DNA of 42,521 nt from Asterionella formosa. Taxonomy: Eukaryota. This document shows positions 1-37,063 of this stretch, piece after piece. Location of the stretch: contig NKIB01014584.1 of the NCBI GenBank assembly GCA_002256025.1, forward strand, positions 1-42,521, given 5' to 3'. The number at the start of each line of letters is the position of its first letter. Positions within the stretch are counted from its first letter, which is position 1. Below the pieces are notes generated by a model that was not told the DNA's origin, did not search any database, and saw only the letters and a program-made list of their open reading frames with translations. Both the position numbers and the translations under genes were made by a program.

Positions 1-2259
1 GCGGCATATATAATGCTGATTGTTACCATAATTTACAACCATTTTGTCTACTACTGCAGAGTATACTCTTGCCATCCAAGGATCGAGAAGCTCATCATCA
101 CTGCTCATCCTCAAAACCTGTTAAAAAGGGACAAAATCTCTTGTCTTGGTGATGGCCTTTAAACAACTAATATTTTCAACAGCTGCATTGAATTGACATA
201 AATACATTCCAAGTGCAAAGATTAGACAAATAACCATTGGATTGGGATAAGCAGGCCTTGAGAATCTTGACTGGTCACCTTTTAAATATTTATCCCTCAA
301 AAGTGCTTGTTTTTGGTCATCACAACGGCCATTGCAATGGCCATCACTTACCTTCTCTTATCTTTGTTCCTTAATGTGATCCTGTGGATTGCTTGTTCAC
401 TGCTGGTTCAAGAATTGGAACTATGAGATGATGGTTCCTCGAGGGCACTCATTCCAATTTAGTTTTGAGCGATTTTAACATTGGTTGTCAAGGCAAGGCA
501 AAGCAAAGCAAACATTTTGAAATTACAAAGCAAAATGCACAGGACATTTGGTCTGAGAAGGAGGAATGAACCATGACAAGTTTGATGAACCTCAAAACTG
601 CCAAGGAAGATAGTTAATGCTAGAATATTATTAATAACATACATTAGTAAGTGGAAAGGATTAATAAGTTCAATTATATCGCAGCATTATGAATCATATG
701 TGGTTGAGAACAAGTATGTTCATTGCTTTGGTCCATCTTTCTTTGTCTACTTCGCAACAATTATATTAAAGTATGTATGGCCGTTGGTTGAGACCAAAAT
801 GCAATGCATTCAAGATTTAGTTGCCTTTCTTTTTTCCTTCCTCCAAAGATGTTTACAAACAGAAATTATAGTGGTACATCAAATATGTTGAGCCCACTCA
901 ATTTCAGAAATGAATTTGCGTGGGTAAATGTTCCTGTTTCAACAAACAATAAAGGAGGACCCACATTCCCCATAACATCAATCTTGTATCCTTGATTGAT
1001 GCAAGGCATTCTCTTGTCACCACGAAAATCAATCCTCTCAATTCCAAGACTCTCTTATCAATTGCATCATTTTAAATTACTTCGAAATGGATCAAATCCT
1101 TCTTGTACTTTTCGTTGAAACCTGTAGATATCTTTCTCCTTTCCTTGTTTTTTGGTTGAAACTTGTAGACAGAATTCACCACAGCAAGCTTTTGGCAATT
1201 CTGAGAAATCGCCTCTTCATGTTCAGACATGGGCATTGGATTTATGCTGACGGGCAAGGATTACCTTCAGTGCCTTGCTTGTTAGTATTGTTACCATTTG
1301 TCGTGTTTCTTTCTATTCGTTCTCCCTTTATCACTGAAAATCAATTGCAAGTTTCCAACAAGCTCATGGAACATGGAACGAATGGTACTACCTGTCACCA
1401 AGAACATCTGAGACTCAATGAGGATGGCATTGCTGGTCGATCATAGTTATAGCAAGGAGTTGATGGTGAAGATCAAACAATGACAAACAGAGGTATCATC
1501 ATGGTGAGTGTAGCAATCAAGTGTGAGGCTGTGGCTCCTCAGTGTATGTGGCATGTATTTGTCAAGAGATTCATGATGGTTTATTATTAACAAGTGGTAT
1601 GTTCATTCATATATTTAATGAAGAGGAAATGAACGACATCAACTTGGACGACTCTACTTTTATGTATTCAAAACAAATATTAGGTTGTGCTAAAATTTAC
1701 AAAAGTAGAACCAGCTACTGGTACAATGGGCCGGTTTGTACCTGATGTACTTTGGGGGGGCCACCAAGCCATAATTTGGATCGAAGTGCTGTATACTACC
1801 GGTAGGTACATGGTATGGTATGGTACCAGGTACCAGGTACACAAGGGGCCCTATCGTGAGAGACCACGTATGTACCACAGCCAAGTCCTTGCCTTTTTGC
1901 TTGGTGACGCTGGTTCCTAAGATACCAGTGCGATAGTTGACAATTGCCCATTCACACATGATACTTACGTAATTTGCATCGAAGTGCATAAACACAGATT
2001 CCATCAAGACAACTACTACATATGTAAAATGCCACGAGAAAACAGCTACCAGAAAAAAACGGCCGTTCGTCCGGTATTTCCCTCAAATGATCAAACTTCA
2101 CTCCAAGTTCAACATAGTAGTACTAGATATACCGTGTTAAATTATGAAATGGGAATGAACGGAAGTTCAGACTTCGGCTGAAAAACCGGCCTACTGTCCG
2201 AACATTTCTACGAAAATCAGCGTAAGTGTCCGGTAGATGTCTGATGATGACTAACATTC

Positions 2260-7026: not shown

Positions 7027-8304
7027 ATGTCCAATCCAACCTCGTACGAAAGCAGCACCGAATCAGAAGGCGACAGGATACCTTCGGAGTGCGAGGTAGT
7101 CATTGTGGGCGCTGGAGTGTCAGGTGCTTCGGCTGCATATTATCTTGCTAGAGCCGGTGTGCGTGATATCATTGTCATTGATAGCGGGTCCTCGCCTGGA
7201 GAAGGCGGAGAACCAAAAAGTGGATCTGCTGTCATGGATTCCGCCCCGACGATAAAAATGATGGTCCAGGCCTATGCTGCCAGCTCCGCAAGCTTCATTG
7301 CGCACCATGGAAGAGAGGGCGCCAGGCGCTACCTGAGTCTCACCGCACAAGGCTTGAGGCAGCAGAAGAGATTGGCCAAAGAATTCTTGCCCGATCCTGA
7401 TGATCAGCTCCGAGAGCTGGGCTCCTTCTATGTAGCATATGCTGAAGACGAACCAGCGCTGCGAGAAGAGTTCGAGACCTTACAATCCTTGGGTTGTTGC
7501 CCGGATATAGTATGGTATGATAAGGCCATGCTTCAACTAGTGGATGGTTGTAGTCCAGACTTTCACTGTGCAATTTTCTTTCCTCAGGATGCCATCATCG
7601 ATTCTTCCTCCTACGCCAAGGCATTGTTGAATGCTGTAGAAGCAGAGCGATCAGTCAGACTATTGCTTGAAACGAAGGTTACCAAAGTTACCGAAGGAGA
7701 AGGAACACCATTGGTTTATCTCTCTTCAGGAGCAATAATCAAGTGCAAGTATGTGGTCATGGCCACCGGTGGACTCTTCCAGTTGCCAGAACTAAACGGA
7801 ATTTTGATGCCATGTTACTCCTATCTGGTGCATGTGCCCGTTGATCAAAGCCAAGGACACCCTTGTGAGTACTCAAGCAATTTTTTCACTTGGGGATTCA
7901 CTCACGACTGGAGTTTTACCAAAGGGAGGGTGCGGTGTTCTGGAGAAGACCACTATAGTGCCTACAAATCACCCTTGTCGCAAGAACGATGCACTAGTTT
8001 ATGGAATTGGACTCTTGACAGATACGGATGTAGCGATTCTGAAGTTCACGACATTCCAGCACAATATGGTGTGTACTCTGAAACTCCAGATATTACTCCC
8101 TTAATTGGATCACGAAATGAAAATAGTCATGTTTGCTATCTCCTCGGTTGTAACGCCTGGGGACAAGCAGTGCTTTCCTACTCGAGTTCGCTTGTTCCAG
8201 GTCTCCTTGGGTACAAACCATTGACGGCGGACGAAAGAGATCACCTACAACTCCTTTCCATTCGCAGATTCACTGAATTACCTCAGCGTCAATGTTCCCT
8301 CTGA
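7027..8304 (+). CDS. FAD-dependent oxidoreductase, DAO/glycine oxidase-like family (425 aa, intronless)
   Basis: Rossmann motif VVIVGAGVSGASAAYYLA, VVMATGG, and C-terminal YSETPDITPLIG...GCNAWG. First ATG at 7027, stop TGA at 8302-8304. Confidence 0.85.
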   Translation: MSNPTSYESSTESEGDRIPSECEVVIVGAGVSGASAAYYLARAGVRDIIVIDSGSSPGEGGEPKSGSAVMDSAPTIKMMVQAYAASSASFIAHHGREGARRYLSLTAQGLRQQKRLAKEFLPDPDDQLRELGSFYVAYAEDEPALREEFETLQSLGCCPDIVWYDKAMLQLVDGCSPDFHCAIFFPQDAIIDSSSYAKALLNAVEAERSVRLLLETKVTKVTEGEGTPLVYLSSGAIIKCKYVVMATGGLFQLPELNGILMPCYSYLVHVPVDQSQGHPCEYSSNFFTWGFTHDWSFTKGRVRCSGEDHYSAYKSPLSQERCTSLWNWTLDRYGCSDSEVHDIPAQYGVYSETPDITPLIGSRNENSHVCYLLGCNAWGQAVLSYSSSLVPGLLGYKPLTADERDHLQLLSIRRFTELPQRQCSL

Positions 8305-8581: not shown

Positions 8582-11500
8582 TTATCGGCGCCGCTTGAAG
8601 CTATCGGCTGCCACCTTGTTCCACAATGATGAACTAGTTTGAGTAGATCGCTTGCGTTTGCAGACCGGAATGGTTCTCTTCATAGGACAGTTGGCAATAT
8701 TACTTTTCGAGGCCTGGCTATTCTCGCTGTGGAAAACGACATGACTGTAGACAACGCTTCGCTGCACTACACATAACTTGTCTTTGCTGGCGGCAGTACT
8801 TCCACCTAAGAAGCTGGTCTTTTGCTTCTTTTGGCGGCTTGCTTGAAGTGCAAGAGACAGACTGCTGTGCTGGCCGAAGATAATACTGCTACTCTGATTT
8901 TCGCGATTCTGAGAGTTGCTAGCCAGTTGAGAATCTCCACCACCGTTTGAGGTCGATCCCCTTGAAGAATTGATGGAAGTCTGACGACGGCGAGCAAATA
9001 GATCTTTCATTGTCTTGAGCTCGAGCTTCATACTTGCGTCCTCGTCAATGAGACGCATCTGAGAAAATTCCACGTCGTCACCATGCGATTCAAGAAGGCG
9101 GTGCATTCTGGCTCTCTTTGCAAATCGTTTGGCGAGTCGTTCTTGCTCGGCTTCTTCTGCATCATCTTCGTTCTGAAGCTTACCCGAGTTAGTTTCTTCT
9201 TCTGCATTTTCTTCATCGGAAAATTGCTCCTCTGCGTCAACCGAACTGCGATGCAAAAAGCGGTCCTTGAGCATCTTATCGAGCAAAGCATTTTCATCCT
9301 CAATCTCTCCATCATCCTTGGGGTCGTCCTCGCCTTCCGCGTCACTATCAAGCTCATCATCGTTCAAAAGTCCAAGACGCTTGGCATCTTCACGGTTGTC
9401 AGCAGCTACCAGCTGATCAAAACGGTGCAAACCGCGGGCCCCAATTCCTCCTCCAGCAATACCACCACGGCGACCGTCGTATCCATCACGCATCCGTCGA
9501 AGCATTTCCTTGTGCTTATCTTTTTCTTCTCGCTGGAGCATATCTATTCTGGCTGCTTCACCGGCCTTTTCATCCCCCTCGTCTTCAGAAATATCATCGA
9601 CGACATGCTTCAAGTCCTCTTCGTCAAGCTCATCGTCATCGTGATCTTCATCATCATCATGGTCGATCTTCTTTTTGTTCAACGAGAAACCAAAGTCTTC
9701 AAGTCCGACAATCTCCTCTTCCTCTTCTTCATCTGCCTCTGTTTCCACCAGTCCATTACCCTTGCGGTTCTTCAATTTCTTGGCGCGTTGGGCTTCACGT
9801 TGCAGCATTGCCCTCCAAACAGCATTACGATCCTTATCCGGCACCTCTCTTGATGGTTCGAGAGAGTCGATGAGAATGTTTTCGTTGATTTCCGCTTGAT
9901 GCTCGTCAGAGTCACTCGTGATTACGTCGGTTCCTTCTGTTGAATTTGTCACGCCGTTTTTCTTGGGCTCCGAAGTTTCGATATTAGCAGTTGGTTCATT
10001 TGAGGTTAAAAGGGCATTCTTGGCGGTCTTGAACGACCCCGACTCGAATTCGGCAAACTCGTCATCGTCACCGGAGTTGTTTGGAGTAGTTTCGATCCGT
10101 AATTTTCTGCCATTAGAGCATTCCATGGTAGAGGTCAGATCATCATCTTTATCTACACCGTCGGTGTCGATAACAGTGTCATCGTCGATTTCATCAAGCG
10201 ATACAGAAGCGTCATCGTCAATAGAATGTTTCAAAGCCATTGTGGTATCCTCCTCCAAAGGTTCCTCATTTACATTCAATTGGCCTGAAGTAGAAACAAA
10301 GCCATGATTGGACACAATCTTCCGATTCGCCTCTCCCTCGTACGCAATCTCCTCGGCAAGTGCCATTTCCTCGTCCTCTTCGGGGATGTACTCTTCATCT
10401 CCGACTTCTAATTCCTGCTCTTCGCTCTCCTCCATAAGGGTTTCCTGCATCAACATGCGCTCGCGCAATAGTTTGCGCTCATTATTCTTCTGGCGCTCCG
10501 CTTCAAGGGCTAGTACTACAACTCGTTTGCGTTCCTCCATCTTGCGGCAATCAACTAAATGGTCTTCTTCTGACTTGTAACCCAATTCGCGGGCAAGCCA
10601 AAGGTTGCCAAGATGGCGCTGCTTTTTTTGTAACATAGTTCGTAAGGCGGCACGTGATTTTCCAGGAGATGTCGTGGACGACCATGAAACACTATTCTTC
10701 TTCTGTTTAACCTTAGAAAACTTCTCCGTCAAGAGAGAGGCAGCCTTGGAGGTTTGCTTAATGATTGATTTGGAAGGAGTAGTAAGAAAGGAAGTTCCGA
10801 TTATTTCCAATTCATCGTCGGATTCATCCGTGTTTTCTTCTGTTAAGACTGCTTCAGGAACTTCCTCGTCCACTTTCTCGGCATTCACGGGGAGAACTTC
10901 GTCTTCTTCTTGCTTGGCGATAACTTGAATGCGTTTCTGATCCAGTTTTTCCAACAGATCCAATCGATCTTCCAACCTTTTTAACTTCAATTCATCAGTA
11001 TTGGTATCAAAAATCTTGGCAATGTCTTGGGCGCGTTCTTGGTCTTCCTTACTTTCTGCAGCTTGCAATTCTTCATTGCGTACGCGAAGTTCTTCGATTC
11101 GTCTTTGGCGCAACATGTCAGCATGGATGCGCTGTGCCGATGGTTTCTTCTTAGAGGACGCATTGCGTTTTGGTCGGGCACCATGTGGCTTCATGAATTT
11201 ATTAGCAGGTCGCTGTCGCTTCTTTGGTGCCTCGTCGTCGGAGGAGATTTCAGCCTCACTCTCTTCATCGCCTTGTTCACTCACTTGATCTTCGTCTCCC
11301 CCAAATTGATCCTCCCCCTCCACCGTCCCATCAATCAATTCCTTCAACCGATCGCGCACCAGATTTTTTGTTGCTCTCGTGAATTTGACATCGTATTCAG
11401 CTTCGAGGGAAATGACAATATCGCGAACTGTGACAGAATTCTTGTCTGCATGGACGAACAGCAAGTCGATCGAGGGTTCAAGAGAGTCCAAGTCTGGCTG

Positions 11501-12253
11501 TTCATCGGTTGTTTGAGTCATTGCTTGAGTCTGAGACAATTGGGATGCGAGGTGTAGTAGATCCGATAGAGGTGAATCGAGCTTGAGGTCGGGCTTGTTG
11601 AAGGCTTTGGTTTCAGGTATGTCGGCATTCTTGTAGATTGGAGTAGTAGATTCGACAGTCCTCACGGAATCAATATTTGAATTTCTTTCCTTTCTATCCC
11701 GAGGAGATTGTTCGCTCTCATTCGCCATTTCGAACTCGTCATCGACATCGGAGACTATTTGATTTTCAACATCATCGTCAGATGCAACTTCACTTTTGGC
11801 GGGAGAATTGATATTCATTGTCTTTGTACAAAATGAATTCACATTTTCTGTCACCGTTAGTTCGACCTCGTCGTCGTCATCATCGTCATTCTTATCGCAG
11901 TTACTGGGATATGTCGGTTCATCAATCGAATGAACATTGCAGTCATCAGGACATTCTGATGATTCATCCAGCTCCTCCTCAGGCGACGAACAAGAAGTAG
12001 AATGTGATGCGTCACAATCTTCCAGATTCTTCCACAGCGATTCTTCGTGGTGTGAATCTTTGCTCACGAGGGTGGACGATACCAGTACGCTGTTCTCTGG
12101 TTCATTCTTGGAGGCAATTACGGATCCGTAAACCTTTCGCACTCGTTTGCCCTTTGGAACATCAAAGAGTTCGAGAGATGTTTCAATGGCGATATCATTC
12201 TGTGTATCCAACAAGACACCATCGCCAACGCTCTTGCCAACTGAGGAGGACAT
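8582..12253 (-). CDS. Large acidic protein, probable Mrc1/Claspin-like replication checkpoint mediator with a DEK-C-like domain (1223 aa)
   Basis: Uninterrupted D/E-rich ORF from ATG 12253. The segment LVETEADEEEEEEIVGLEDFG...EDLKHVVDD...EMLRRMRDG resembles the MRC1-like domain. The segment IDLLFVHADKNSVTVRDIVISLEAEYDVKFTRATKNLVRDRLKELI resembles DEK-C. The ORF is secure; the function is inferred. Confidence 0.7.
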   Translation of the reverse strand: MSSSVGKSVGDGVLLDTQNDIAIETSLELFDVPKGKRVRKVYGSVIASKNEPENSVLVSSTLVSKDSHHEESLWKNLEDCDASHSTSCSSPEEELDESSECPDDCNVHSIDEPTYPSNCDKNDDDDDDEVELTVTENVNSFCTKTMNINSPAKSEVASDDDVENQIVSDVDDEFEMANESEQSPRDRKERNSNIDSVRTVESTTPIYKNADIPETKAFNKPDLKLDSPLSDLLHLASQLSQTQAMTQTTDEQPDLDSLEPSIDLLFVHADKNSVTVRDIVISLEAEYDVKFTRATKNLVRDRLKELIDGTVEGEDQFGGDEDQVSEQGDEESEAEISSDDEAPKKRQRPANKFMKPHGARPKRNASSKKKPSAQRIHADMLRQRRIEELRVRNEELQAAESKEDQERAQDIAKIFDTNTDELKLKRLEDRLDLLEKLDQKRIQVIAKQEEDEVLPVNAEKVDEEVPEAVLTEENTDESDDELEIIGTSFLTTPSKSIIKQTSKAASLLTEKFSKVKQKKNSVSWSSTTSPGKSRAALRTMLQKKQRHLGNLWLARELGYKSEEDHLVDCRKMEERKRVVVLALEAERQKNNERKLLRERMLMQETLMEESEEQELEVGDEEYIPEEDEEMALAEEIAYEGEANRKIVSNHGFVSTSGQLNVNEEPLEEDTTMALKHSIDDDASVSLDEIDDDTVIDTDGVDKDDDLTSTMECSNGRKLRIETTPNNSGDDDEFAEFESGSFKTAKNALLTSNEPTANIETSEPKKNGVTNSTEGTDVITSDSDEHQAEINENILIDSLEPSREVPDKDRNAVWRAMLQREAQRAKKLKNRKGNGLVETEADEEEEEEIVGLEDFGFSLNKKKIDHDDDEDHDDDELDEEDLKHVVDDISEDEGDEKAGEAARIDMLQREEKDKHKEMLRRMRDGYDGRRGGIAGGGIGARGLHRFDQLVAADNREDAKRLGLLNDDELDSDAEGEDDPKDDGEIEDENALLDKMLKDRFLHRSSVDAEEQFSDEENAEEETNSGKLQNEDDAEEAEQERLAKRFAKRARMHRLLESHGDDVEFSQMRLIDEDASMKLELKTMKDLFARRRQTSINSSRGSTSNGGGDSQLASNSQNRENQSSSIIFGQHSSLSLALQASRQKKQKTSFLGGSTAASKDKLCVVQRSVVYSHVVFHSENSQASKSNIANCPMKRTIPVCKRKRSTQTSSSLWNKVAADSFKRRR

Positions 12254-13073: not shown

Positions 13074-14452
13074 ATGTAAGTATTGGTTGAAGGGATTCGC
13101 TCATGATTGTCGATCCACCATGGTGACCTGCGATTAAGTCCGAACGAGTGCGATTCTTGCTCTTCCCTTGCTCGAAATTGTCGGCAGCAAGCGTGATGAG
13201 TGCTGTCGTTCTCACTAGTTTACGTAGCGGACATACTAACCCCTACGTGCTTCTTACCCCTTACTAAAATGTGAAATTCAGGTCTCACCGTAAATTCGAA
13301 GCCCCCCGCCATGGTAACTTGGGATTCCTCCCCAAGAAGCGTACCAAGCACCACTTTGGTCGTATTCGTCACTTCCCAAAGGACGATGCCAGCAAGGACT
13401 GCCACTTGACTGCGTTCCGTGGATACAAGGCCGGAATGACCCACATTGTCCGTGGTGTTGACCGTCCTGGTGCCCTCATGCACAAGCGTGAAGTCGTCGA
13501 TGCCGTCTCTATCGTTGAGACTCCTCCTATGGTTGTTGTCGGAGTTGTTGGATACGTTGAAACCCCTAACGGTCTGCGATCGCTTACCACCGTATTTGCT
13601 GAGCATTTGTCCGAGGAGTTCAAGCGTCGCTGCTACAAGAATTGGTTCAGCTCCAAGAAAAAGGCATACACCAAGTATGCCACCAAATACCAGAAGGAGG
13701 GTGGAAAAGAAATTGAGGCTGAACTTGACCGCATTTCCAAGTTTTGCACCGTTGTCCGTGTAATTGCTCACACTCAAGTCAAGAAGCTCAACCTTAGAAT
13801 CAAGAAGGCCCACATTATGGAAATTCAGATCAACGGAGGAGCAGACGCTGCCGCCAAAGTGGCATTTGCAAAATCACTTTTTGAGAAGGAGGTTCCTGTT
13901 GACTCTGTCTTCAGCAAGGATGAGCAGATCGATGTCATCGGAGTCACCCGTGGTCACGGTTTCGAAGGAGTCGTCACTCGTTGGGGTGTCTCCCGTCTTC
14001 CTAGAAAGACGCATCGTGGTCTTCGTAAGGTTGCTTGTATTGGATCCTGGCATCCTGCCCGTGTGTCCACCACTGTTCCCCGTGCTGGTCAGAATGGATA
14101 CTTCCACCGTACCGAACTCAACAAGAAGGTTTACCGCATCGGGAAGAAGGGCGACAATGCCTCTTGTCAGACTCCTACCGACTTGACTGAAAAGTCCATT
14201 ACTCCCATGGGAGGTTTCGTTCACTATGGAGAAATCAATGAGGACTGGCTCATGCTCAAGGGAGCTGTTGTTGGAGTTAAGAAGCGTCCATTGGTCCTTC
14301 GTAAGTCAATGATGAACCACAGCAGTCGCAAACATTTGGAGGCAATTGACATCAAGTTTATCGATACTTCCTCCAAGAATGGACATGGACGTTTCCAGAC
14401 GGCAGAAGAAAAGGCTAAGTTTTTGGGTCCCCTCGCCTCCAAGCAAAAGTAA
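13074..14452 (+). CDS. RPL3: 60S ribosomal protein L3 (uL3), 390 aa; exons 13074-13075 and 13282-14452
   Basis: Splicing AT|GTAAGT...TTCAG|G restores [21 protein letters not shown]. Conserved motifs include [32 protein letters not shown] and [15 protein letters not shown]. Confidence 0.98.
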
Positions 14453-17031: not shown

Positions 17032-18000
17032 ATGAAACCTGGAAACCCTTCTATTGTCCACTACGTTCGCCAAACCATAGGTCGTGCCCTCCGAGAAACT
17101 GGCCAAGCCGTGGATCGAGCAGCCATTCGCATCGGGAACTGGGCTACCACTGAGATGGACATTGGTGATGAACCGGTGATTTACGACGATCATCTGAATC
17201 GACATCGGACGTATATGCCACTTCTGTATCGTGGGGAACCCATTGTGCACGACGAGGTGTCATACATTGCGCCTTGTAGCACGTTAATTGGAAGCGTGAG
17301 GGTTCATAAGGATGCGAGCATTTGGTATGGAGCCATCCTACGAGGAGACGTCATTCAAAATGGCAAGAGCTGGCAATATTCAAAGGAGGAGAACCTGTAT
17401 GCCATTCCTGAAATCGAGGATTTCAACAGGAAAGAAGTAGTTTTGCACCCCGTGAATCACATGGCCGAGGTTGGAGGGATCGTCATGATTGGCGAAGGCA
17501 GCAATGTACAGGATGGCTGCTTGATTGATGCCCATCATGGGCATTCCATTATCGGAAAGGGCGTCACTATTGGACATTTGGCCCATATCCATAGTGCATG
17601 TGTGGGTGATTATAGTTTGATCGGCATGGGCAGTGTCCTAAATAGTGGAGTTGTGGTCGAAACTGAGGCTTTTGTGGCGGCCGGTGCAGTCGTTCCGCGA
17701 GACACTCTGATTCAGAGTGGAGAGTTATGGGTAGGAAATCCGGCTAGGAAAATAAGAGATTTGACCGAGGCAGAGCGCGCCAAGTTGCACTATCAATCGG
17801 AAGAGTATGTCAAAGTGGCTCGCGGGCAACGTGGGATTATGGAATTGGGTGGGAATGTTGCTAGTTTGCTGAATATTCACAAGGATGTCATGCTGGAGGA
17901 CGGAACAGTGGTTCTTGCGCATTCAAATGAAGATAAGGCGAATGCAGAAACAGAGACCGATCCCAAGGCAGTTAATAAGTCTCCGTCATCATCATCATAG
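17032..18000 (+). CDS. Gamma carbonic anhydrase family protein (left-handed beta-helix; probably mitochondrial complex I-associated type), 322 aa
   Basis: Motifs IGRALRETGQAVDR, LNRHRT, IWYGAILRGD, IGEGSNVQDG, VTIGH...H, hexapeptide repeats, and LWVGNPARKIRDL. Confidence 0.9.
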   Translation: MKPGNPSIVHYVRQTIGRALRETGQAVDRAAIRIGNWATTEMDIGDEPVIYDDHLNRHRTYMPLLYRGEPIVHDEVSYIAPCSTLIGSVRVHKDASIWYGAILRGDVIQNGKSWQYSKEENLYAIPEIEDFNRKEVVLHPVNHMAEVGGIVMIGEGSNVQDGCLIDAHHGHSIIGKGVTIGHLAHIHSACVGDYSLIGMGSVLNSGVVVETEAFVAAGAVVPRDTLIQSGELWVGNPARKIRDLTEAERAKLHYQSEEYVKVARGQRGIMELGGNVASLLNIHKDVMLEDGTVVLAHSNEDKANAETETDPKAVNKSPSSSS

Positions 18001-18460
18001 TAACCACTCTCGCCATCATTGGAGTGTTCAATCAACAAGTGAGCATTGTTTTGGTGTTTAGGGCATTCAGTAGGACACGCACATACAGGTCGCAGAAGAT
18101 TCTAATGAAAAGATGCTTTCATAAGTAGATCTTGATTGTATTCAGGCAGATTGTGCTAGCTGATTAAAATCCCTACTGGATGTGAAATGGTGTTGGGCTT
18201 AGTCACTGCAGTATTCTTGAGTAGGGTGAGAGGTATGCAGCACATCGATCCAGCCACAATTTCAAAAAAGACTCACGGTAGATTAGATTAGAGTTGTGCA
18301 AACCTAAATGCTGCAATGTTATACATACGTTATATAATCGATCTCCCTTTTCCTCGTGAATCGTTCCTTCAAGAAACTAGAGCACTGGTTCGTCTTTCAT
18401 TCATGTCATCAACTAGCAAATGCCCTACAAAAGACTATTCATTTCTGATGAGGTACAAAT

Positions 18461-20146
18461 CTAGACACTTGCTGAGAATACACCATGACGAACAGTAATG
18501 ACGCTCCCATTCGCATCTCTGATGTAGTCCGGCAAATCATTGCCCCAACTCAATCCCATATCCATCATATGTCGGAATCCAGCCATGACGTCCGCACCTT
18601 GCATAGCCATACCAATCACAGACACTTCAGCGCAGCCAATGTTGGGATCCCAACATTCTGATGGAACTGAAGATGTTCCTGTCCACTGCCATGCCATTTG
18701 CGGAAATGGCACCCTTGTTGTATCACCAAGGTTATTGAGACGTTGACGTTTCCACTCTTGCACGAGATCTTCCGAGTGATCTAACATGGTACCCTTGCTA
18801 TTTATGGCGACCATGGCCGCACCAGTATCCTTTGAACATTGCATAGCAGCGGCAATCGCTCGACCATGCTTCTCCCCGAATTGCAATCGCTGCGCTTCAG
18901 ATGCCCGACCCATGAGACTGGCAGTTGCAACATTTTGCAGCTCAACCACTGGATCCTGAACTGTGTCTGTCTTTGCAAAGTGATCAAAGCGGCCTTCGGC
19001 AACACCTGTAGCATGAGCCGCCATAAGCAAATCGAGTGGTTCTGTACCCGACCAGTCTCCAACGCGTGCGGTTGTAATTGATTCAATGGCTTTGAGATAG
19101 ATCATAAAGTAGGTGTAAGTACAATGCAAGCGAGAACGAAAAATGCAAATAGGCGGCAAAATAGGGCAACAAATTAGGAACCCACCAGTTTGTTGGGGTT
19201 TGGCTCCCCCTGATAATACAATTTCCAAGGTTGCCAGGACGTAGTGAGTGAATCTCGAGCCACTTGGCGCCCGACTTGCTGTCACCGCCATTAAATCACT
19301 TCCCTCCTCGCATATAATCACAAATTCGTTGGCCTTTTTCTTCTTTTTCTCGCCCGTTATGCTGCGATTCCTCATGTCGGTATAATCATAAGGCTTTCCG
19401 ATACAAACCTGCAAATAAATTCTGCTTTCGTGCTCTTGACAATATACCCGGCACCCCGAATTTTCCTCTCCACCCCCGTGAAAAATGTTCCGAAACTCCT
19501 CGTTGACTATGTTAGCAATCTCATGACAAGATTTCCCCTGCACACGAACAGGTCCCCCACCAAGACGGTATACTTCATAAATTTTCTTTCTCCCCCATAG
19601 CTTCGTCGTCCGTGTGCACACTGCCAGGTGCAAGGACTCTAGTAATCTCGCCCAAATGGCCTTTGAGGTCACATTTGCAACTGTGCCTTTATGATGCTTG
19701 CCAATTTGGCGCAAGGAGGGGGCAGGTGTCTCTTCGGCCGACGACATGTCCGAGACCAGGGCTGCTGTTGTCTCAGCAGCAGCTTCTGTAGATGTTGGCT
19801 CCGTTGCTGCGGGTACATGGCTGTCACTATTGCTGGCATCACGGTCCCCTGCAGCAGCTGCAGCCTCGTCGACCATCGTTTGAATCGCCTGCTCTACGAG
19901 TAGTGCCAATCGATGTTCCATGATCCGAACGTCACCGTAATCATCACCTGCAAAGAAGGGCAAAAATTCGTTGATTTTGGCAAGAAGAGCGGCCTCGGCA
20001 ACACCCCGCAACAGGACCGTGCCCAATGGCAGGTCGTCCAGGTTGCGAATCGTTCGACTCAGCGCTCTCGCTTCGGCAGGAAGGGCGGCGCTGGCATGTC
20101 GTTTGCTCTTGTATGCGAAATCGCCAAGGACGGATATTCCAGGCAT
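18461..20146 (-). CDS. Probable CENP-N/Chl4/Mis15-like inner kinetochore protein (529 aa); exons 20146-19186 and 19089-18461
   Basis: Long ORF with accATG at 20146 and a 96-nt GT..AG intron at 19185-19090. Motifs KKIYEVYRL, RIYLQVCIGKPY, GRFDHFAKTDTVQDPV and C-terminal GADVMAGFRHMMDMG...LPDYI...VITVRHG are collinear with CENP-N/Chl4. The gene is secure; the identity is inferred. Confidence 0.6.
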   Translation of the reverse strand: MPGISVLGDFAYKSKRHASAALPAEARALSRTIRNLDDLPLGTVLLRGVAEAALLAKINEFLPFFAGDDYGDVRIMEHRLALLVEQAIQTMVDEAAAAAGDRDASNSDSHVPAATEPTSTEAAAETTAALVSDMSSAEETPAPSLRQIGKHHKGTVANVTSKAIWARLLESLHLAVCTRTTKLWGRKKIYEVYRLGGGPVRVQGKSCHEIANIVNEEFRNIFHGGGEENSGCRVYCQEHESRIYLQVCIGKPYDYTDMRNRSITGEKKKKKANEFVIICEEGSDLMAVTASRAPSGSRFTHYVLATLEIVLSGGAKPQQTGGFLICCPILPPICIFRSRLHCTYTYFMIYLKAIESITTARVGDWSGTEPLDLLMAAHATGVAEGRFDHFAKTDTVQDPVVELQNVATASLMGRASEAQRLQFGEKHGRAIAAAMQCSKDTGAAMVAINSKGTMLDHSEDLVQEWKRQRLNNLGDTTRVPFPQMAWQWTGTSSVPSECWDPNIGCAEVSVIGMAMQGADVMAGFRHMMDMGLSWGNDLPDYIRDANGSVITVRHGVFSASV

Positions 20147-21688
20147 GGTTGCTGCTGAATGAAGAGAAACTTGTTGTACGATAAGCAATATATGGACTGG
20201 GAGAGTCCTGTATATACCGGTAAATATGTTGCTTTCGACTGAAGCACAATATCGGAAAAAGGTTGAACGAACAGTCTTTTCTACAATTAATAAGCATTCT
20301 TCTATTAATTAAATGTGTATTTTTAGTTTATTGCTTCTTTGCTGGTTTCTTATTGAATATATGTGTCGGAGAAATTACCTTAGGAGACATCCCGGTTTGA
20401 AATTACATACATTCTCACATATGTATGTTGAATCGAAAGAATCAAAAAGAATCTGGTACCAAAATCAGAATTCGAAAATAATGTGCATCAACAGTAAGGG
20501 TAATTCAATTAAAACTTTTAGGAACGATTACAATGGATCGCTGCAACATCATTGTTCATATCTACAGCCTATTTGGTCCATGAAGTGTCCTTACAGGATA
20601 CAAGAAAGCAATAGAAGGCTTCAGGATCATGCAATTTCAATAATATGTGACACATCATTGACTTTGAACTGTACTGGGCAACCACTTACCACCAGTATGT
20701 ACGTGTTGCCCCCTTGTCCAGCATTCTTTATTTTAAGTATGTATGATATCATGAGTATGGCTGGATGCAAATTCCAGAATCTTCCCATCAGGTACCCTGG
20801 TAGTCACAGCCGCATTGTTGTGGATGGCAAAGAAGTGGTTCTTCTTTTTTCTGAAGATATGTTGAGAATATCATAGTATCTGTCTAATGAAGACAAAGCA
20901 CCAAAAATTTGGCGAACCAAAAAACAAAGCTAAGGAGCACATGATAGAATAACTAATGTTTGTTTCTGATGAAACAAGTCCCCATTTTGTCAACAACAAA
21001 GTGTGTGTGTTTAATGGTAAAATCGGTATTTGAATATTCATTCACTACCAATTGTTGGCGAGTAACTTAATGCACAAAAGAGTAGAAAAATGCACAATGA
21101 GTTATTTAGGGGAATTTGTGACGTTTTGATTTTCTAGTCACTTAAAGGAACAAGCATTGTTGTTGAATGCTGTATGTATACCAATATTCAAATTCGAAAT
21201 GATCTACTTAAGTTTCGCTCCATATAAATGTGAACCATGACATGAAGTAAATATGTAAAAATCAGTACAAATACTGTATAGTTCACTGTCCTGGACCCTC
21301 CCCTGTTGTTGCTGTTTTCTCGAGGTGGCACCAAACACCCAATAGTTTTCTAGACTTGGGCAAAGTAACATTCTATTATTCTGTTAGTCCCATCTGTTTG
21401 GATCTGATTTGGATGCATGACCATTGTCAAAAGCCTTACTCAATATAATAATGCTGTTTGATGGATTTTGGTAATCTTCGTCGATTTCCATTAGTTTCTT
21501 GTCAACTCTTGCTTGTGGTTCTTTCATCTGCTTGTTGTTTAGTGCATACTATTTAGGCACGGTGGGATGGACCACATTTGTTTTGTCATGCATGATTGAT
21601 ACAAGCTTTGTTTATTAATTCCCTTTACTAAGTAGTGCAGCTCCTTTTGTGATGATATTTCTCCAGCTCTTAAAATTTTGCAAATTCT

Positions 21689-24041: not shown

Positions 24042-26393
24042 GGTAAACGAGACGTTGTGGATTCGCTTTGGGTCGACCTGTCGTTTCGAACTTCGCTGTG
24101 CTGTATCCACGTTTGCCCATGGTGGGGTTTGTCTCTGGAAGGCTATTATTACGGTACCTGGTACCTGGTACTGGTACTAACGGTTATGGTCTTGCCTTGC
24201 CATTCGGCCATGATTCGTACATCATACGAACGGCATTACCTTATAACTGGAGTACCAAATACGTACGTACATGGGACTGCGAAGGACGAGCTATTTTATA
24301 ATATTATTCTGGAATCTGTCAATGATACAACATATTTCGTACAACAATGCATGATACTTTTAAAAAGGGCCATCGTTGTTATCATTCTGTCATTGGTGTA
24401 TCATATCCAGGTTTTGCTTCGAAAATTGCGTTGGCTTGGTATCATAATTTTGTTTCACGAATGGGCTTTTGGGTCTGATCACTGGTGTTCTTTCATGGGC
24501 ATATCACCGATAAAGTTTTTGGATCCTGGACCAATGCTGTATCAGTGATACAGCTATTAGTTGCTGTTTATCACATTTGTTGCTTGTCACTGATATAATA
24601 TCTGTTAACATGGTGCCAGCACCACCACCTACATGATTTATTTTGTTGATGGGAAAATCAACATCAGCATCACAGCGCAACATGAAAACACAACTGGTGT
24701 AATCGATTGATCCTAATGGCATGCATCTATAATTCAAATTATAGCCTCACACCACTTTTGCAAGCCCTAATGTCATATCTTAGTATTGTTTTAGTCGGAT
24801 TAGTAGTCATAGCTTTAGTTGTTGCTGGAACAAATCAATAGTTCTAGCTATTTGCATTCCTATAAATTGACGAATATTCTTTTACATCGTAGATTCGTAA
24901 GTTCTTACGCAATTTTGAAGATGTATCTATATTTCTTTCTCTATTGCATCGTTCATACAATGATATATTAGACCTCCAAGGCGCAGCGACTCGTTTGCCA
25001 TTTTGATGAAGAAATGGCCGATTATCAACATGGTGGTCAATGCAACAACAACGACAATGTTGACGAGTCTCCCACCAGTACTGCCTGGTACCAGCAGGGT
25101 ACCTGGTGGCTGTAGCATGTGTACACAGGATCCGTCACATGATATGATATTTGTTATTATATTCCGGTTATTTTTATTTAGGCTACTCATATGCATATCA
25201 CTGATCAGATATATTTAGATGCTTGTAGCTGGCGTGTCATTTCTAATGATCTATGTTACTCCAGCCATGATACACTGTGATCAGTTCCAATCTTGAATTT
25301 CAAATTAAGTGATACACGATGAAAACTGATAAGAATGGCCCCAAGAATATCCGGTATATTGGAATCTGGTATAGTATACCAGTAGTATTATATATTTGTT
25401 CTAATACACCAATCAGGACTTTTCACAGTAGCTACCAGGTAGTAGAATATAATACCAGTAGTATACTCCAGGAAGGTCTGGTAGTGCACGTTTTCTGCAC
25501 ACCTTTTCAACTACAATTCACTCCCAATGATTCATCCCATGCCTGTCGGACGAGATAGGCCAGTTTTCACTTTCACGGCATGCAACACTCTACACTACGG
25601 TAATCTGTAGGTCTAACCATATTTTGTTTGATTCTCTATCTAACCATATGTCAATTAACAGTCCATTGATATTTTCAAAATGACTCTTTTGTTTACGAGT
25701 ACTGATCCAGTTGATGACTATATATGACTGGAAATTCGCTGACAATGACTAGATCTGCTGACTACAAATTGAATTTACTGACCCTGCCTGAATAGAATTT
25801 GCTGACCATGACTAGCTAGAAGTTACTGAGTGATCTGTGAATTCTATAACCAAATGGTCTATCACCTGTAGAAGTATTTGAACATGATTTTGATGATCAG
25901 ATGATGAGGATTTACTGAATGATAATTTAACAGCATAGAAATTTACTTTAGAGAATTTGGAATGGAAAGCCAGCCTAACCCTTCCAGTAGGCATGGGATG
26001 AATCATTGGGAGTGTGCAGTCGAAACTGAAAAAGTGCAAATAAAACATGCTCTACTGGACCTTCCAGTACATATAAGTGCGTCCCTCATTGCTTGTATAC
26101 AAGTAAAGGAGGGCTGTGCATTTGGGGGTGCAAAAGAGTTTTTTCAGTTAGTGAGTGTTCAGCATGATGATTTCAAATCCTCTGCTGCCGTCACAAATCG
26201 GCCCCATCAGCCATGTTCGCGCCAAAAAATGTTATTGGCTATGATGTAAACATTCATACCGGTAGATCTGAGTATATCTGCATAATGAGAATGCATGCAT
26301 GCAATCATTAGCAATTGCCACCTTCGTGCACTCTCAAAGATTCATTTCATTTCACAGATACAGACACTGACACTGACCCTCTCTCCCCTGATC

Positions 26394-27243
26394 ATGCACA
26401 TTCCATCCCCCACCAACATCCCACGAGGAGCGTTTATCGTGTTGGAAGGCGTCGACCGCTGCGGGAAGACGACACAGTGCGGTTTGTTGTTGAAACACCT
26501 CACGTCCACCCTGGCATTGTCGGCTACGGCAATGCGCTTTCCCGACCGTACCACAGCTGTAGGTACCTTGATTGACGGATACCTTCAATCCAGTCAGAAT
26601 CTAGAAGATAGAGCCATTCATTTGTTATTCTCCGCCAATCGATGGGAGGCAGTCGAATCCTTGACCAGCCAAATAGCAACCGGCAAAACAATTGTCTGCG
26701 ATCGATATGCCCATTCGGGAGTGGCATTTTCATCGGCCAAGAACGCCGAGGACCCATTAACGGTGGAATGGTGCAAGTCTCCAGATAAGGGACTACCTGC
26801 TCCAGATGCTGTGATTTTCTTGACTTTGTCACAAGTCGAAGCGGAGCAGCGTGGAGGGTGAGATTTATTTTTCCTTTGTTTTGTGACGCTTGTGACAGAA
26901 ATCGTTCTACTCGAGATTTGATTATTTTTCTCAAACATGCCATCTAACCTATATCACTTTAATTAATTTTTCCAGCTATGGTGGTGAACGATACGAAAAG
27001 CGCGACCTTCAGCTTCGTGTACGAAATCGTTTTGACGAGTTAAGGGCAGCGGACGAAGGCAGCGCCATCAACTGGTATATGATTGATGCAGCCCAGTCTG
27101 TCGAAGACGTCCAAAAAGATATCAACTCGGTTGTGATGAAAACTATTGAGCATGTCAAGTCTGGAAAGCCCCTGGGAAAATTATGGATGGAGGGCGACTA
27201 TGACTTGTCCAAGACATCCGCGTTTGAGGATAAGGAGAATTAA
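26394..27243 (+). CDS. tmk: Thymidylate kinase (dTMP kinase), 243 aa; exons 26394-26857 and 26976-27243
   Basis: RGAFIVLEGVDRCGKTTQ P-loop, RFPDRTT, HLLFSANRWE, CDRYAHSGVAFS. Intron 26858-26975 restores RGGYGGERYE. Confidence 0.95.
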
Positions 27244-34923: not shown

Positions 34924-37063
34924 CTAACGTTGAATTTTGATAAGCCCTCTTAGAAGCTTTTTGACAGTCAAGGTGAGGCGGGTTCGGTTGTACAAATCGC
35001 CAGCCTGACGAAGTGTTTCGGCTGCGGTGGGGTAAGGATGAATGACTGCTGCCAGCTTACCCAATCCAGTATCAGACTGCATAGCAAATGTAACCTCACT
35101 AATCATGTTCCCGGCGTTGGGACCAACAATAGATGCTCCCAAAATCTTGTCGGTCTTCGCATCGACACGGAAGCGGACAAATCCAATAGTTTCATCATCA
35201 CATATGGCACGGTCGTTGCTTTCAAAGTGCTTGTCGAAGATACGGTATTCAATACCTCGTTCCTTGAGATCCTTTTCATATAGACCAACACTCGCAATTT
35301 CTGGCGATGTAAAAGTGGCATAAGGGATCAATAATTTTGACATTTTGTCATTTCCCAAAAATAAAGCATTACGAATCACAGCACGAGCCATGAAATCTGC
35401 TGCATGTGTAAACTTGTATTGCGAACAGCAATCTCCGACACCATACACCTTGGGGTTGGTTGTTTGGAGCTTGTCATTGACAGTAAGCCCAAGGTTGACA
35501 TCGTACTCAACGCCTGCTTTTTCCAAGTCACAACCGGTGACATTAGGACGACGTCCTGCAGCAACCAATAAAGCATCACAGATTAAAACGGTTGGAGTGG
35601 AAAAAGATTTCTCTTGGATAGTAACCTTCATTTCTGGAAGTCCATTTTCACCAACGTTTCCAGTCAATGAGATGCCCTCGTATTTGTCCACAGAAAGGAG
35701 GAAGGTGACTCCATCTTCACTCATTTGGTCCTTAACTATTTTCGCCATGTCCTGGTCCTCCTTTGGTAAAATTTCTCCAGATCTTCCCAAGACGGTTACA
35801 GAGGTTCCAAGACGCTGCATAGCTTGTGCCAATTCCAGTCCTATGACACCGGCACCAATGACAATCATATTTTTTGGTTGACTGGTCAGGTTGAACACAG
35901 TCTCATTAGTCATGACCATCGGAGATGAGTTACCAGATTTCTTTGTTGAAGTAGTTTTTTCAAATAGTTCCTTCAAGCCAGGCATGTCAATCAAGGTAGG
36001 ATATCCACCAGTGGCAATAACGGCACGCTTGAAGGTTAAGGTCCTTCCATTGACTGATATAGTCTTTTCACTAGTAAACTTTCCACGTCCTATAAAGACG
36101 TCAACACCGAGTTCCTTTGTATAACGCTCAGCAGAGTCGTGATGGGAAATCTCGGCACGAACCTTGCGAATACGTTCCATCACCTTGGCGAAGTTTACTT
36201 TTACAGCGGTTGGTCCACCGTCAATCGAGATACCAGCTGCCTCTAATTTTTTCATGTCACCCCGAAGTGCATGCGCCAAATTGGCAGAATGAATCATAGC
36301 TTTGGATGGAACACAACCTACATTAAGGCTTATTATAAGAATCAGCTTTGAGAAAGGAAAATATGATTGTGATTGTTTCGTCGCTTATCCATACTTACCA
36401 ATCCCCTCCAAGCATGTGCTCCTCAATCAATGCAACTTTGGCGCCCACTCCAGCAGCACCAGCAGATGTAACCAAACCACCTGCACCGGCACCAATAACG
36501 ACCATGTCATAGAATGACGAATCCTTACCTGCGTTTGCAGCAGGATCTTTCCAGTTGGGAGGGTGAACATGGTCTAGTAAAGTAGTGTTGTGCTCATCCA
36601 ATGGCCATACAAGAGCTGCAATATGTTCATCCTTCGTATAGATAGCGCCAAAATCAGGCTGCCGAAACTTTGGTTGAAGACTCTGGTTTTCCTTAGATTG
36701 AAGCGAGACAGGGGCCAAAAAATCTCCCCATCCAAGTTTCTTGCCAGTGGCTACATTGATAGCATGTGATCCGCGCTCTTGGCCAGTGAGCAAACGATAA
36801 AACTTGAAATCATCTGCAAATTCATGATCTCTAGTCACGTGTTCCAAAAGATTGTATTCTGTTGCCAACGTCTTGCCAAGCCAGACAGCATCAGCACGCG
36901 ATTCTGCCATACCAGAAGATACCATGAAGTCGACGGCTTCTGATCCAACAAAACACTGCTTGTAAGTCTTGAGTCGATATTTTCTGTCTTGAATCTGGAC
37001 ACCTTCCTTGAATGCCTTGGCAACCTCGTCGAGAATGTTGGGTTCTGTCTCTGGTAGACTCAT
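34924..37063 (-). CDS. DEP-domain + class I pyridine nucleotide-disulfide oxidoreductase (MerA/LPD-like) fusion, 689 aa; exons 37063-36399 and 36328-34924
   Basis: N-terminal DEP signature IQDRKYRLKTYKQCFVGSEAVDFM...HVTRDHEFADDFKFYRL. Also GAGAGG, GAGVIGLE and IHPYPTAAE. The 70-nt intron 36398-36329 restores GGDCLNVGCVPSK. Confidence 0.9.

Follow-up and report, generated by a model that had tools for sequence, protein, structure and literature searches.

A gene on the minus strand of a 42,521-nucleotide (nt) stretch of Asterionella formosa DNA (contig NKIB01014584.1, positions 1 to 42,521; hereafter the window) very probably encodes the orthologue of CENP-N/Chl4/Mis15, a subunit of the inner kinetochore's constitutive centromere-associated network (CCAN). 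It is a transcribed nuclear gene of two exons (18461..20146). The CENP-N/Chl4 identity, proposed by a first-pass annotation of the bare sequence, is supported by (i) matches of related proteins to the CENP-N family profile PF05238; (ii) a profile link to a canonical CENP-N, P0179, from outside the diatom family; (iii) the predicted folds of the protein; and (iv) its similarity to a Phaeodactylum tricornutum protein catalogued as CenpN.

The first-pass annotation had placed the gene at 18461..20146. These coordinates were confirmed, as an ATG-to-TAG open reading frame (ORF) of 561 codons occupies exactly this stretch on the minus strand, but an in-frame intron had been missed. This intron (19090..19185, minus strand) begins with GT at 19185-19184 and ends with AG at 19091-19090. 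With a length of 96 nt it stays in frame, and it remained hidden inside the raw ORF because it is in frame and free of stop codons. The DNA stretch GGFLICCPILPPICIFRSRLHCTYTYFMIYLK inside the ORF, bounded by GT/AG, is non-coding in appearance. RNA contigs from Logan were mapped onto positions 18300-20400 for four runs of three studies: the polyA transcriptome X1, two metatranscriptomes that stem from a single study (X2 and X3), and X7 from a further study. A single joint, between 19089 and 19186, was found in all four mapped runs (it skips 96 nt and ends CT..AC), and contig coverage of the gene ran from 18300 as far as about 20200-20280. Since the intron is skipped in all four runs, the mature protein has 529 amino acids (aa).

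Coding exon 1 (19186..20146, minus strand; start codon 20146-20144) thus encodes aa 1-320 and the first base of codon 321, the 96-nt intron is in phase 1, and coding exon 2 (18461..19089, minus strand; TAG stop codon 18463-18461) encodes aa 321-529. Read-through of the intron accounts for 32 residues of the raw ORF, GGFLICC...FMIYLK, which are absent from a 529-aa database protein (P0002) that equals the spliced window protein except for one V/I allele at 19003. The start codon is supported by the alignment of the N-terminus, MPGISVLGD, with the MPGxxxIGD N-termini of homologues. The C>T change at 19003 (Val350 to Ile) that distinguishes P0002 was also present in RNA contigs of X2, X3 and X7, not in those of X1, and is regarded here as an allelic or strain variant. 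Near-identical transcripts were detected in runs X1-X11 when the stretch 18400-20250 was searched (word shares 0.21-0.90). These runs are labeled as lake-water or freshwater metatranscriptomes of several studies, with one labeled as an algae metagenome.

All motifs on which the first-pass annotation had relied were found in the translation, in the order that it gave and outside the intron read-through: KKIYEVYRL, IVNEEFRNIF, RIYLQVCIGKPY, EFVIICEEGSDLMAV, HYVLATLEIVL, EPLDLLMAA...GRFDHFAKTDTVQDPV, RQRLNNLGDTTRVPFPQMAW, and MQGADVMAGFRHMMDMG...LPDYI...VITVRHG. The human counterparts that it had named fared less evenly. KVWEVFQM is present in human CenpN, and the near-identical ...TFGTYPQPQLEFAQY occurs in the sequence that precedes the Xenopus entry and was taken to be mouse CenpN. 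AVWIRIAWGTQY was not seen in any sequence output.

To place the protein in a family, database proteins matching at E≤0.01 were collected (41 in total), and 11 full-length family members were aligned to obtain a profile, A2, with 54 invariant columns. Searched against 1.84 billion proteins, this profile retrieved 196 representatives at E≤1e-3. A comparison with PF05238 ('Kinetochore protein CHL4 like') had been suggested at the outset as a check, and both the relatives and the family profile matched CENP-N. Lack of any profile or structural match to CENP-N had been named as grounds for refutation; matches of both kinds were obtained. Nine of the 41 close homologues matched PF05238 at E≤1e-3, always at profile positions ~240-390 of 410, and four exceeded the Pfam cut-off of 25 bits (P0009, 29.0; P0012, 29.2; P0014, 27.0; and P0024, 27.5). 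A further scan covered 142 proteins, comprising P0002 and 141 listed representatives beyond those in the scan of the 41 homologues. Here, PF05238 was matched in 32 proteins (best E=1.3e-28), and the only other families matched were those of the high-mobility-group (HMG) box.

The database models of the family are largely halves, either N-terminal (~330-350 aa) or C-terminal (~170-260 aa), with matched ranges such as 1-320 and 324-553. The intron position appears to be conserved, as many of the gene models stop or start there or carry junk sequence (columns ~650-700 of alignment A1). In our reading, gene callers mishandle an intron whose position is conserved; the splitting of gene models at this position accounts for the small number of family members with a Pfam match.

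Within the 141 listed representatives, P0179 (eukprot Nk52_evm10s327) was the only canonical full-length PF05238 protein seen. It scored 100.9 bits against PF05238 over profile positions 68-406 of 410, and the diatom profile A2 reached it at E=8.7e-8. Alignment of A2 with P0179 by hhalign gave a probability of 96.4% (E=1e-9) over 114 C-terminal columns; P0179 lies outside the diatom family, and its alignment at the sequence level is limited to the last ~115-130 residues. A homologue search started from P0179 returned only P0179 itself. At the level of sequence profiles, homology of the C-terminal domain to CENP-N is statistically established.

The C-terminal domain (aa 351-529; 18464..19000, minus strand), which includes MQGADVMAGFRHMMDMG...LPDYI, is homologous to the CENP-L/Iml3-binding C-terminus of CENP-N/Chl4, as indicated by PF05238 in homologues, by hhalign, and by a structural model of this part. 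Exon 2 was folded separately because the C-terminal half was poorly modeled in the full-length prediction. The resulting model (208 aa, 48-sequence alignment) had a predicted local distance difference test (pLDDT) score of 74.3. In a scan of 48,161 chains that did not depend on Foldseek, its three best matches were Chl4 in 6qlf_N (Z 6.0, aligned range 262-451), Chl4 in 4je3_B (Z 5.7, 375-450, 72/77 residues), and human CENP-N in 7xhn_N (Z 4.3, 234-332); the fourth-ranked chain had Z 3.4. The chain 4je3_B is the Chl4 side of the Iml3-Chl4 dimer. In Foldseek, CENP-N/Chl4 entries occupied ranks 1-6 with the same model. The weight of this predicted fold match lies in its rank, its collinearity, and its agreement with the profile result.

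For the N-terminal part, the architecture of CENP-N was recovered in the predicted structure, in which the TBP-like CENP-L/N homology domain comes after a pyrin-like bundle of helices. The full-length AlphaFold2 model, built from A2 (11 sequences), contains confident blocks at helices 18-104 (pLDDT 61-83) and in an alpha/beta domain at ~160-350 (pLDDT 70-87). A search with AlphaFold and Foldseek had been proposed as a further check, and CENP-N/Chl4 structures proved to be the best matches. Against the PDB, Foldseek gave 12 matches at E≤0.001; all rows listed for them, as well as the one that follows (1.1e-3), were CENP-N/Chl4 entries. In VIA alignments, the crystal structure of human CENP-N (6eqt_A) was matched with Z 13.4 and a root-mean-square deviation of 4.0 over 197/207 residues (model 22..350 against chain 1..210). 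The top 11 VIA rows were CENP-N/Chl4 entries (Z 10.4-13.4), followed by Iml3 (4kr1, Z 6.8), TBP (Z 6.0), and CENP-L (7r5s_L, Z 5.3), which aligned with model residues ~181-350 only. The lower VIA matches (TBP, adaptin appendages, S-adenosylmethionine decarboxylase, and Mediator) correspond to the TBP-like relatives listed for CenpL/N by Tromer et al. (2019; PMC6601020).

The N-terminal helical subdomain (aa ~20-101; 19844..20089, minus strand) consists of pyrin-like helices in the AlphaFold2 model and aligns with 6eqt_A from residue 1 of that chain; it opens with a family-conserved LPxEAR helix. The TBP-like CENP-L/N homology domain (aa ~155-350; 19001..19684, minus strand) is interrupted by the intron and was delimited by AlphaFold2 strands and VIA. 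It contains the strand WGRKKIYEVYRL and the motif TASRAPSGSRF, and its strands 189-194, 232-249, 274-289, and 328-334 reached pLDDT values of 78-87.

Compared with human CENP-N (6eqt, 6c0w, and 7bxt; chain N of 7pkn, 7qoo, 7r5v, 7xhn, and 7xho), the predicted diatom fold spans the whole N-terminal domain. The two proteins have a K-[VI]-[WY]-E-V-[FY] strand motif in common, although aligned identity is only 12-16% and there is no direct sequence match. The window protein differs from the human protein by a ~20-residue N-terminal extension (MPGxxxIGD...) before helix 1 and by its length (529 aa against 339 aa). Budding-yeast Chl4 (4je3 chain B; chain N of 6qld, 6qlf, 8ow1, and 8ovw) was matched by the full model with Z 10.4-11.3 at an aligned identity of 7-17%, and HMMER aligned the motif G.DV..G...L to 4je3_B.

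A diatom CENP-N has been on record since 2017. Dataset EV1 of van Hooff et al. (2017, EMBO Rep; PMC5579357) lists PHATR_46853 (PTRI004732) of P. tricornutum under CenpN. For the same species, its entries include CenpA, CenpC (two), CenpH, CenpL (PHATR_46777), and CenpS, while none of CenpI, K, M, O, P, Q, R, T, U, W, and X is among the entries listed (1-30 of 51). No Thalassiosira entry occurs among the 35 'CenpN' places in the archive of that study (PMC5579357), which places the CCAN in three of five supergroups and probably already in the last eukaryotic common ancestor.

The database protein P0046, one of the representatives retrieved with A2, is the PHATR_46853 protein without its first 8 residues and with a few substitutions, and its cluster includes XP_002185750.1 of P. 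tricornutum. A BLASTP comparison of P0002 with P0046 gave 33% identity over 449 columns (E=8e-56); both proteins belong to the same diatom family, and this match points to orthology with a protein already placed in the CenpN orthologous group. Motifs common to PHATR_46853 and the window protein are FW..LE..HLQV.SRTT..WG.KK.YE.Y, SG.KK.K..EF, LTASR.PS.S.F, GTEP..LL, AVGR, and FKC...QG..V.AG..EL. They differ in the insert that follows the helical subdomain: PHATR_46853 has 607 aa with an HMG-box-like segment in its insert, whereas the window protein, with 529 aa, has a shorter disordered insert without an HMG box.

The first-pass annotation had further suggested that the diatom CCAN was overlooked. 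This holds for general databases, which do not carry the CENP-N name: the Phaeodactylum protein appears there as 'predicted protein' or 'HMG box domain-containing protein' (UniRef), and among the clusters looked up, members that bear a name are called 'hypothetical protein'. A full-text literature search found no paper dedicated to the diatom CCAN. The suggestion does not hold for the comparative literature, since the P. tricornutum CenpN was catalogued in 2017 (PMC5579357). Retention of CENP-N in a diatom is therefore already published, and the window gene is a well-supported annotation rather than a discovery.

Several observations weigh against the assignment to CENP-N. The raw ORF matched no Pfam family at E≤10, and the spliced protein P0002 matched none at E≤1 or at E≤1e-3. 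These negatives reflect how sensitive a scan with one sequence is. Relatives with 34-40% identity reach 27-29 bits, the PF05238 cut-off being 25. Searching the PDB with the ORF (phmmer) gave only a low-complexity match to Snf5 (E=0.066) and JetC (E=0.88), both irrelevant, and the A2 profile found FadA2 (E=1.1) and Chl4 4je3_B (E=2.8) there, neither of them significant. A look-up of P0002 in the ESM Atlas yielded no usable match by features. Homology in sequence was demonstrated only for the C-terminal ~115-200 residues, and the N-terminal assignment rests on predicted structure. The full-length model is mediocre overall (mean pLDDT 59.1; predicted template modeling score 0.50; 11-sequence alignment). 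Foldseek returned nothing at E≤0.001 for the C-terminal model, where CENP-N/Chl4 entries lead at E 0.09-1.5, and the corresponding Z values (6.0, 5.7, and 4.3) are weak in absolute terms. AlphaFold2 was trained at a time when structures of CENP-N were already public, so that its fold match lacks full independence from them. Finally, chain N of the multi-chain cryo-EM entries was taken to be CENP-N/Chl4 by chain-letter convention and length, the identity being explicit only for 6eqt (title) and 4je3_B (named CHL4).

Among other explanations, a chance ORF or a pseudogene without product might be suspected from the overlapping ORFs of 60-117 codons in other frames of the region. The transcript is spliced and abundant in the RNA contigs of all four mapped runs, the reading frame is kept across the intron, and 41 homologues and the 54 invariant columns of A2 attest to conservation. 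Because of this splicing and conservation, the explanation was rejected and its probability is practically nil. It is also very improbable that the gene encodes the paralogue CENP-L/Iml3, with which CENP-N has the TBP-like CENP-L/N homology domain in common. Iml3 and CENP-L were indeed among the fold matches, at Z 6.8 and 5.3 over model residues ~181-350; CENP-N/Chl4 structures reached Z 10.4-13.4 over residues 22-350, helical subdomain included, and CENP-L is not known to have such a subdomain. This paralogue was rejected because of the fold scores and the presence of the helical bundle: a TBP-like protein lacking the pyrin-like bundle, with CENP-L/Iml3 as its best fold match, was not what the model showed (Z 6.8 and 5.3 against 13.4). 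Moreover, the relatives match PF05238 and otherwise only HMG-box families, within the Iml3-Chl4 dimer it is the Chl4 side (4je3_B) that the C-terminal model matches, and a separate CenpL, PHATR_46777, is listed for P. tricornutum (PMC5579357).

A descendant of CENP-N that has left the kinetochore is a further alternative, which we regard as improbable. Such a protein would bind chromatin or DNA in general and no longer mark centromeres; in some species it would be fused to an HMG box. The HMG box in some members (e.g. P0046, P0146, and P0173) and the UniRef name 'HMG box domain-containing protein' would fit this explanation, as would the literature search, which found no localization data. Its usual partners may also be missing, given that CenpI, K, M, O, P, Q, R, T, U, W, and X are not among the P. 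tricornutum entries listed (PMC5579357). On the other hand, CenpL and CenpH are listed for that species in the same dataset, the window protein itself has no HMG box, and the family as a whole has kept and conserved both the N-terminal architecture for nucleosome binding and the C-terminal domain for binding CENP-L. An orthologue of CENP-N/Chl4/Mis15 remains the preferred reading of the gene.

The kinetochore function of the window protein is inferred by analogy with the human and yeast proteins. In the work behind 6eqt, 6c0w, 4je3, 6qld, 7qoo, and 7r5s, the N-terminal domain of CENP-N reportedly sits on the CENP-A nucleosome and its DNA, CENP-L is the partner of the C-terminal beta-sheet domain, and the basic channel of CENP-L/N grips DNA. 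By this analogy, the N-terminal domain of the diatom protein would bind the centromeric CENH3/CENP-A nucleosome together with its DNA, and the C-terminal beta-sheet domain would pair with CENP-L. Together, the CENP-L/N pair may then grip DNA in a basic channel and provide the anchor for the other CCAN subunits.

Features specific to the diatom family were found around and within the N-terminal domain. One is a conserved extension at the N-terminus (MPGxxxIGD); it precedes the first helix, the one that contacts CENP-A in humans. Between the helical and the TBP-like subdomains, family members carry 80-180 extra residues relative to animal CENP-N. In the window protein, this insert (aa 102-154; 19685..19843, minus strand) is of low complexity, rich in Ala/Ser/Thr/Glu, and predicted to be disordered (pLDDT <50). 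It holds a conserved A-x-V-S-D-x-S motif (ALVSDMSS), with the consensus AxVSDxSxxG in alignments A1 and A2. Among 57 family proteins carrying the core strand WGxKKxYE[IV]Y, a VSDxS-like motif in the insert was present in 31 and an LPxEAR-like motif in 44. The distance from LPxEAR to the core strand was 160-260 residues in the 44 proteins with both; it is 162 in the window protein and ~80 in human CENP-N.

An HMG box was detected in the insert of some family members (4/142 with HMG_box_2 and 2/142 with HMG_box). It was located at residues 137-168 of P0046 (HMG_box, E=2.3e-4, below the Pfam cut-off), 191-254 of P0146, and 188-245 of P0173. Pfam scans found no HMG box in the window protein, which has the disordered linker at that position.

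Within the TBP-like domain, a basic loop E-K-K-K-K-K-A (aa 266-272; 19331..19351, minus strand) stood out by its conservation in A2, where K269 and K270 are invariant and E266, K267, and K268 nearly so. A run of at least four K/R within 140 aa after the core strand was present in 54 of the 57 family proteins. Basic residues that are invariant or nearly so in A2 are K187, K188, R233, R261, K267-K270, R292, R329, and R354. To judge from this conservation, the EKKKKK loop is a candidate DNA contact; the conserved basic residues fit a DNA-binding role, which is suggestive only.

Possibly, diatom CENP-N has been remodeled to read DNA composition, besides or instead of the L1 loop of CENH3, although we consider this rather unlikely. 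The idea draws on the N-terminal extension, on the insert of 80-180 residues with its VSDxS motif, to which some species, Phaeodactylum among them, add an HMG box, and on the near-invariant EKKKKK loop. Diatom centromeres are reportedly low in GC (Diner et al. 2017, PNAS). If the idea is true, these features together could direct the CENP-L/N module to these short, low-GC centromeres.

The ribosomal protein L3 gene of the window (13436-14452) agrees with a diatom host, as the first-pass annotation had assumed. Its product showed 85-86% identity to two MMETSP proteins (taxids 420782 and 2839) from Bacillariophyta; the two other matches with an organism named, to a plant and a fission yeast, reached 65-67%. 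In addition to L3, Pfam annotated an FAD-dependent oxidoreductase (DAO; 7027-8304), a thymidylate kinase (26295-26861), a pyridine-nucleotide disulphide oxidoreductase with dimerisation domain (34924-36297), and a DEP-domain protein (36395-37063). These Pfam-annotated neighbours are ordinary housekeeping genes, with no kinetochore gene among them. The convergent neighbour on the plus strand (17032-18000) encodes a hexapeptide-repeat (left-handed beta-helix) protein (Hexapep, E=1.3e-11) and ends ~460 nt from the CENP-N stop codon. RNA contigs of X2 and X3, 3.2-3.3 kb long, continue past 18300 towards this gene. An ORF of 1223 codons at 8582-12253 (minus strand) matched no Pfam family at E≤1e-3 and lies in a region with strongly negative GC and AT skew.

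The field's picture is unchanged by this gene, since CenpN, CenpL, CenpH, CenpC, and CenpS had already been scored in a diatom (van Hooff et al. 2017; PMC5579357). What the analysis adds is a firm, structure-backed name for a gene that automatic annotation leaves blank, as Pfam misses it. The corrected gene model and the family alignment A2 can be used for annotating CENP-N in other diatom genomes and for designing tagging experiments at diatom centromeres. The finding lends support to the view that the CENP-L/N core of the CCAN, at least, is retained in diatoms.

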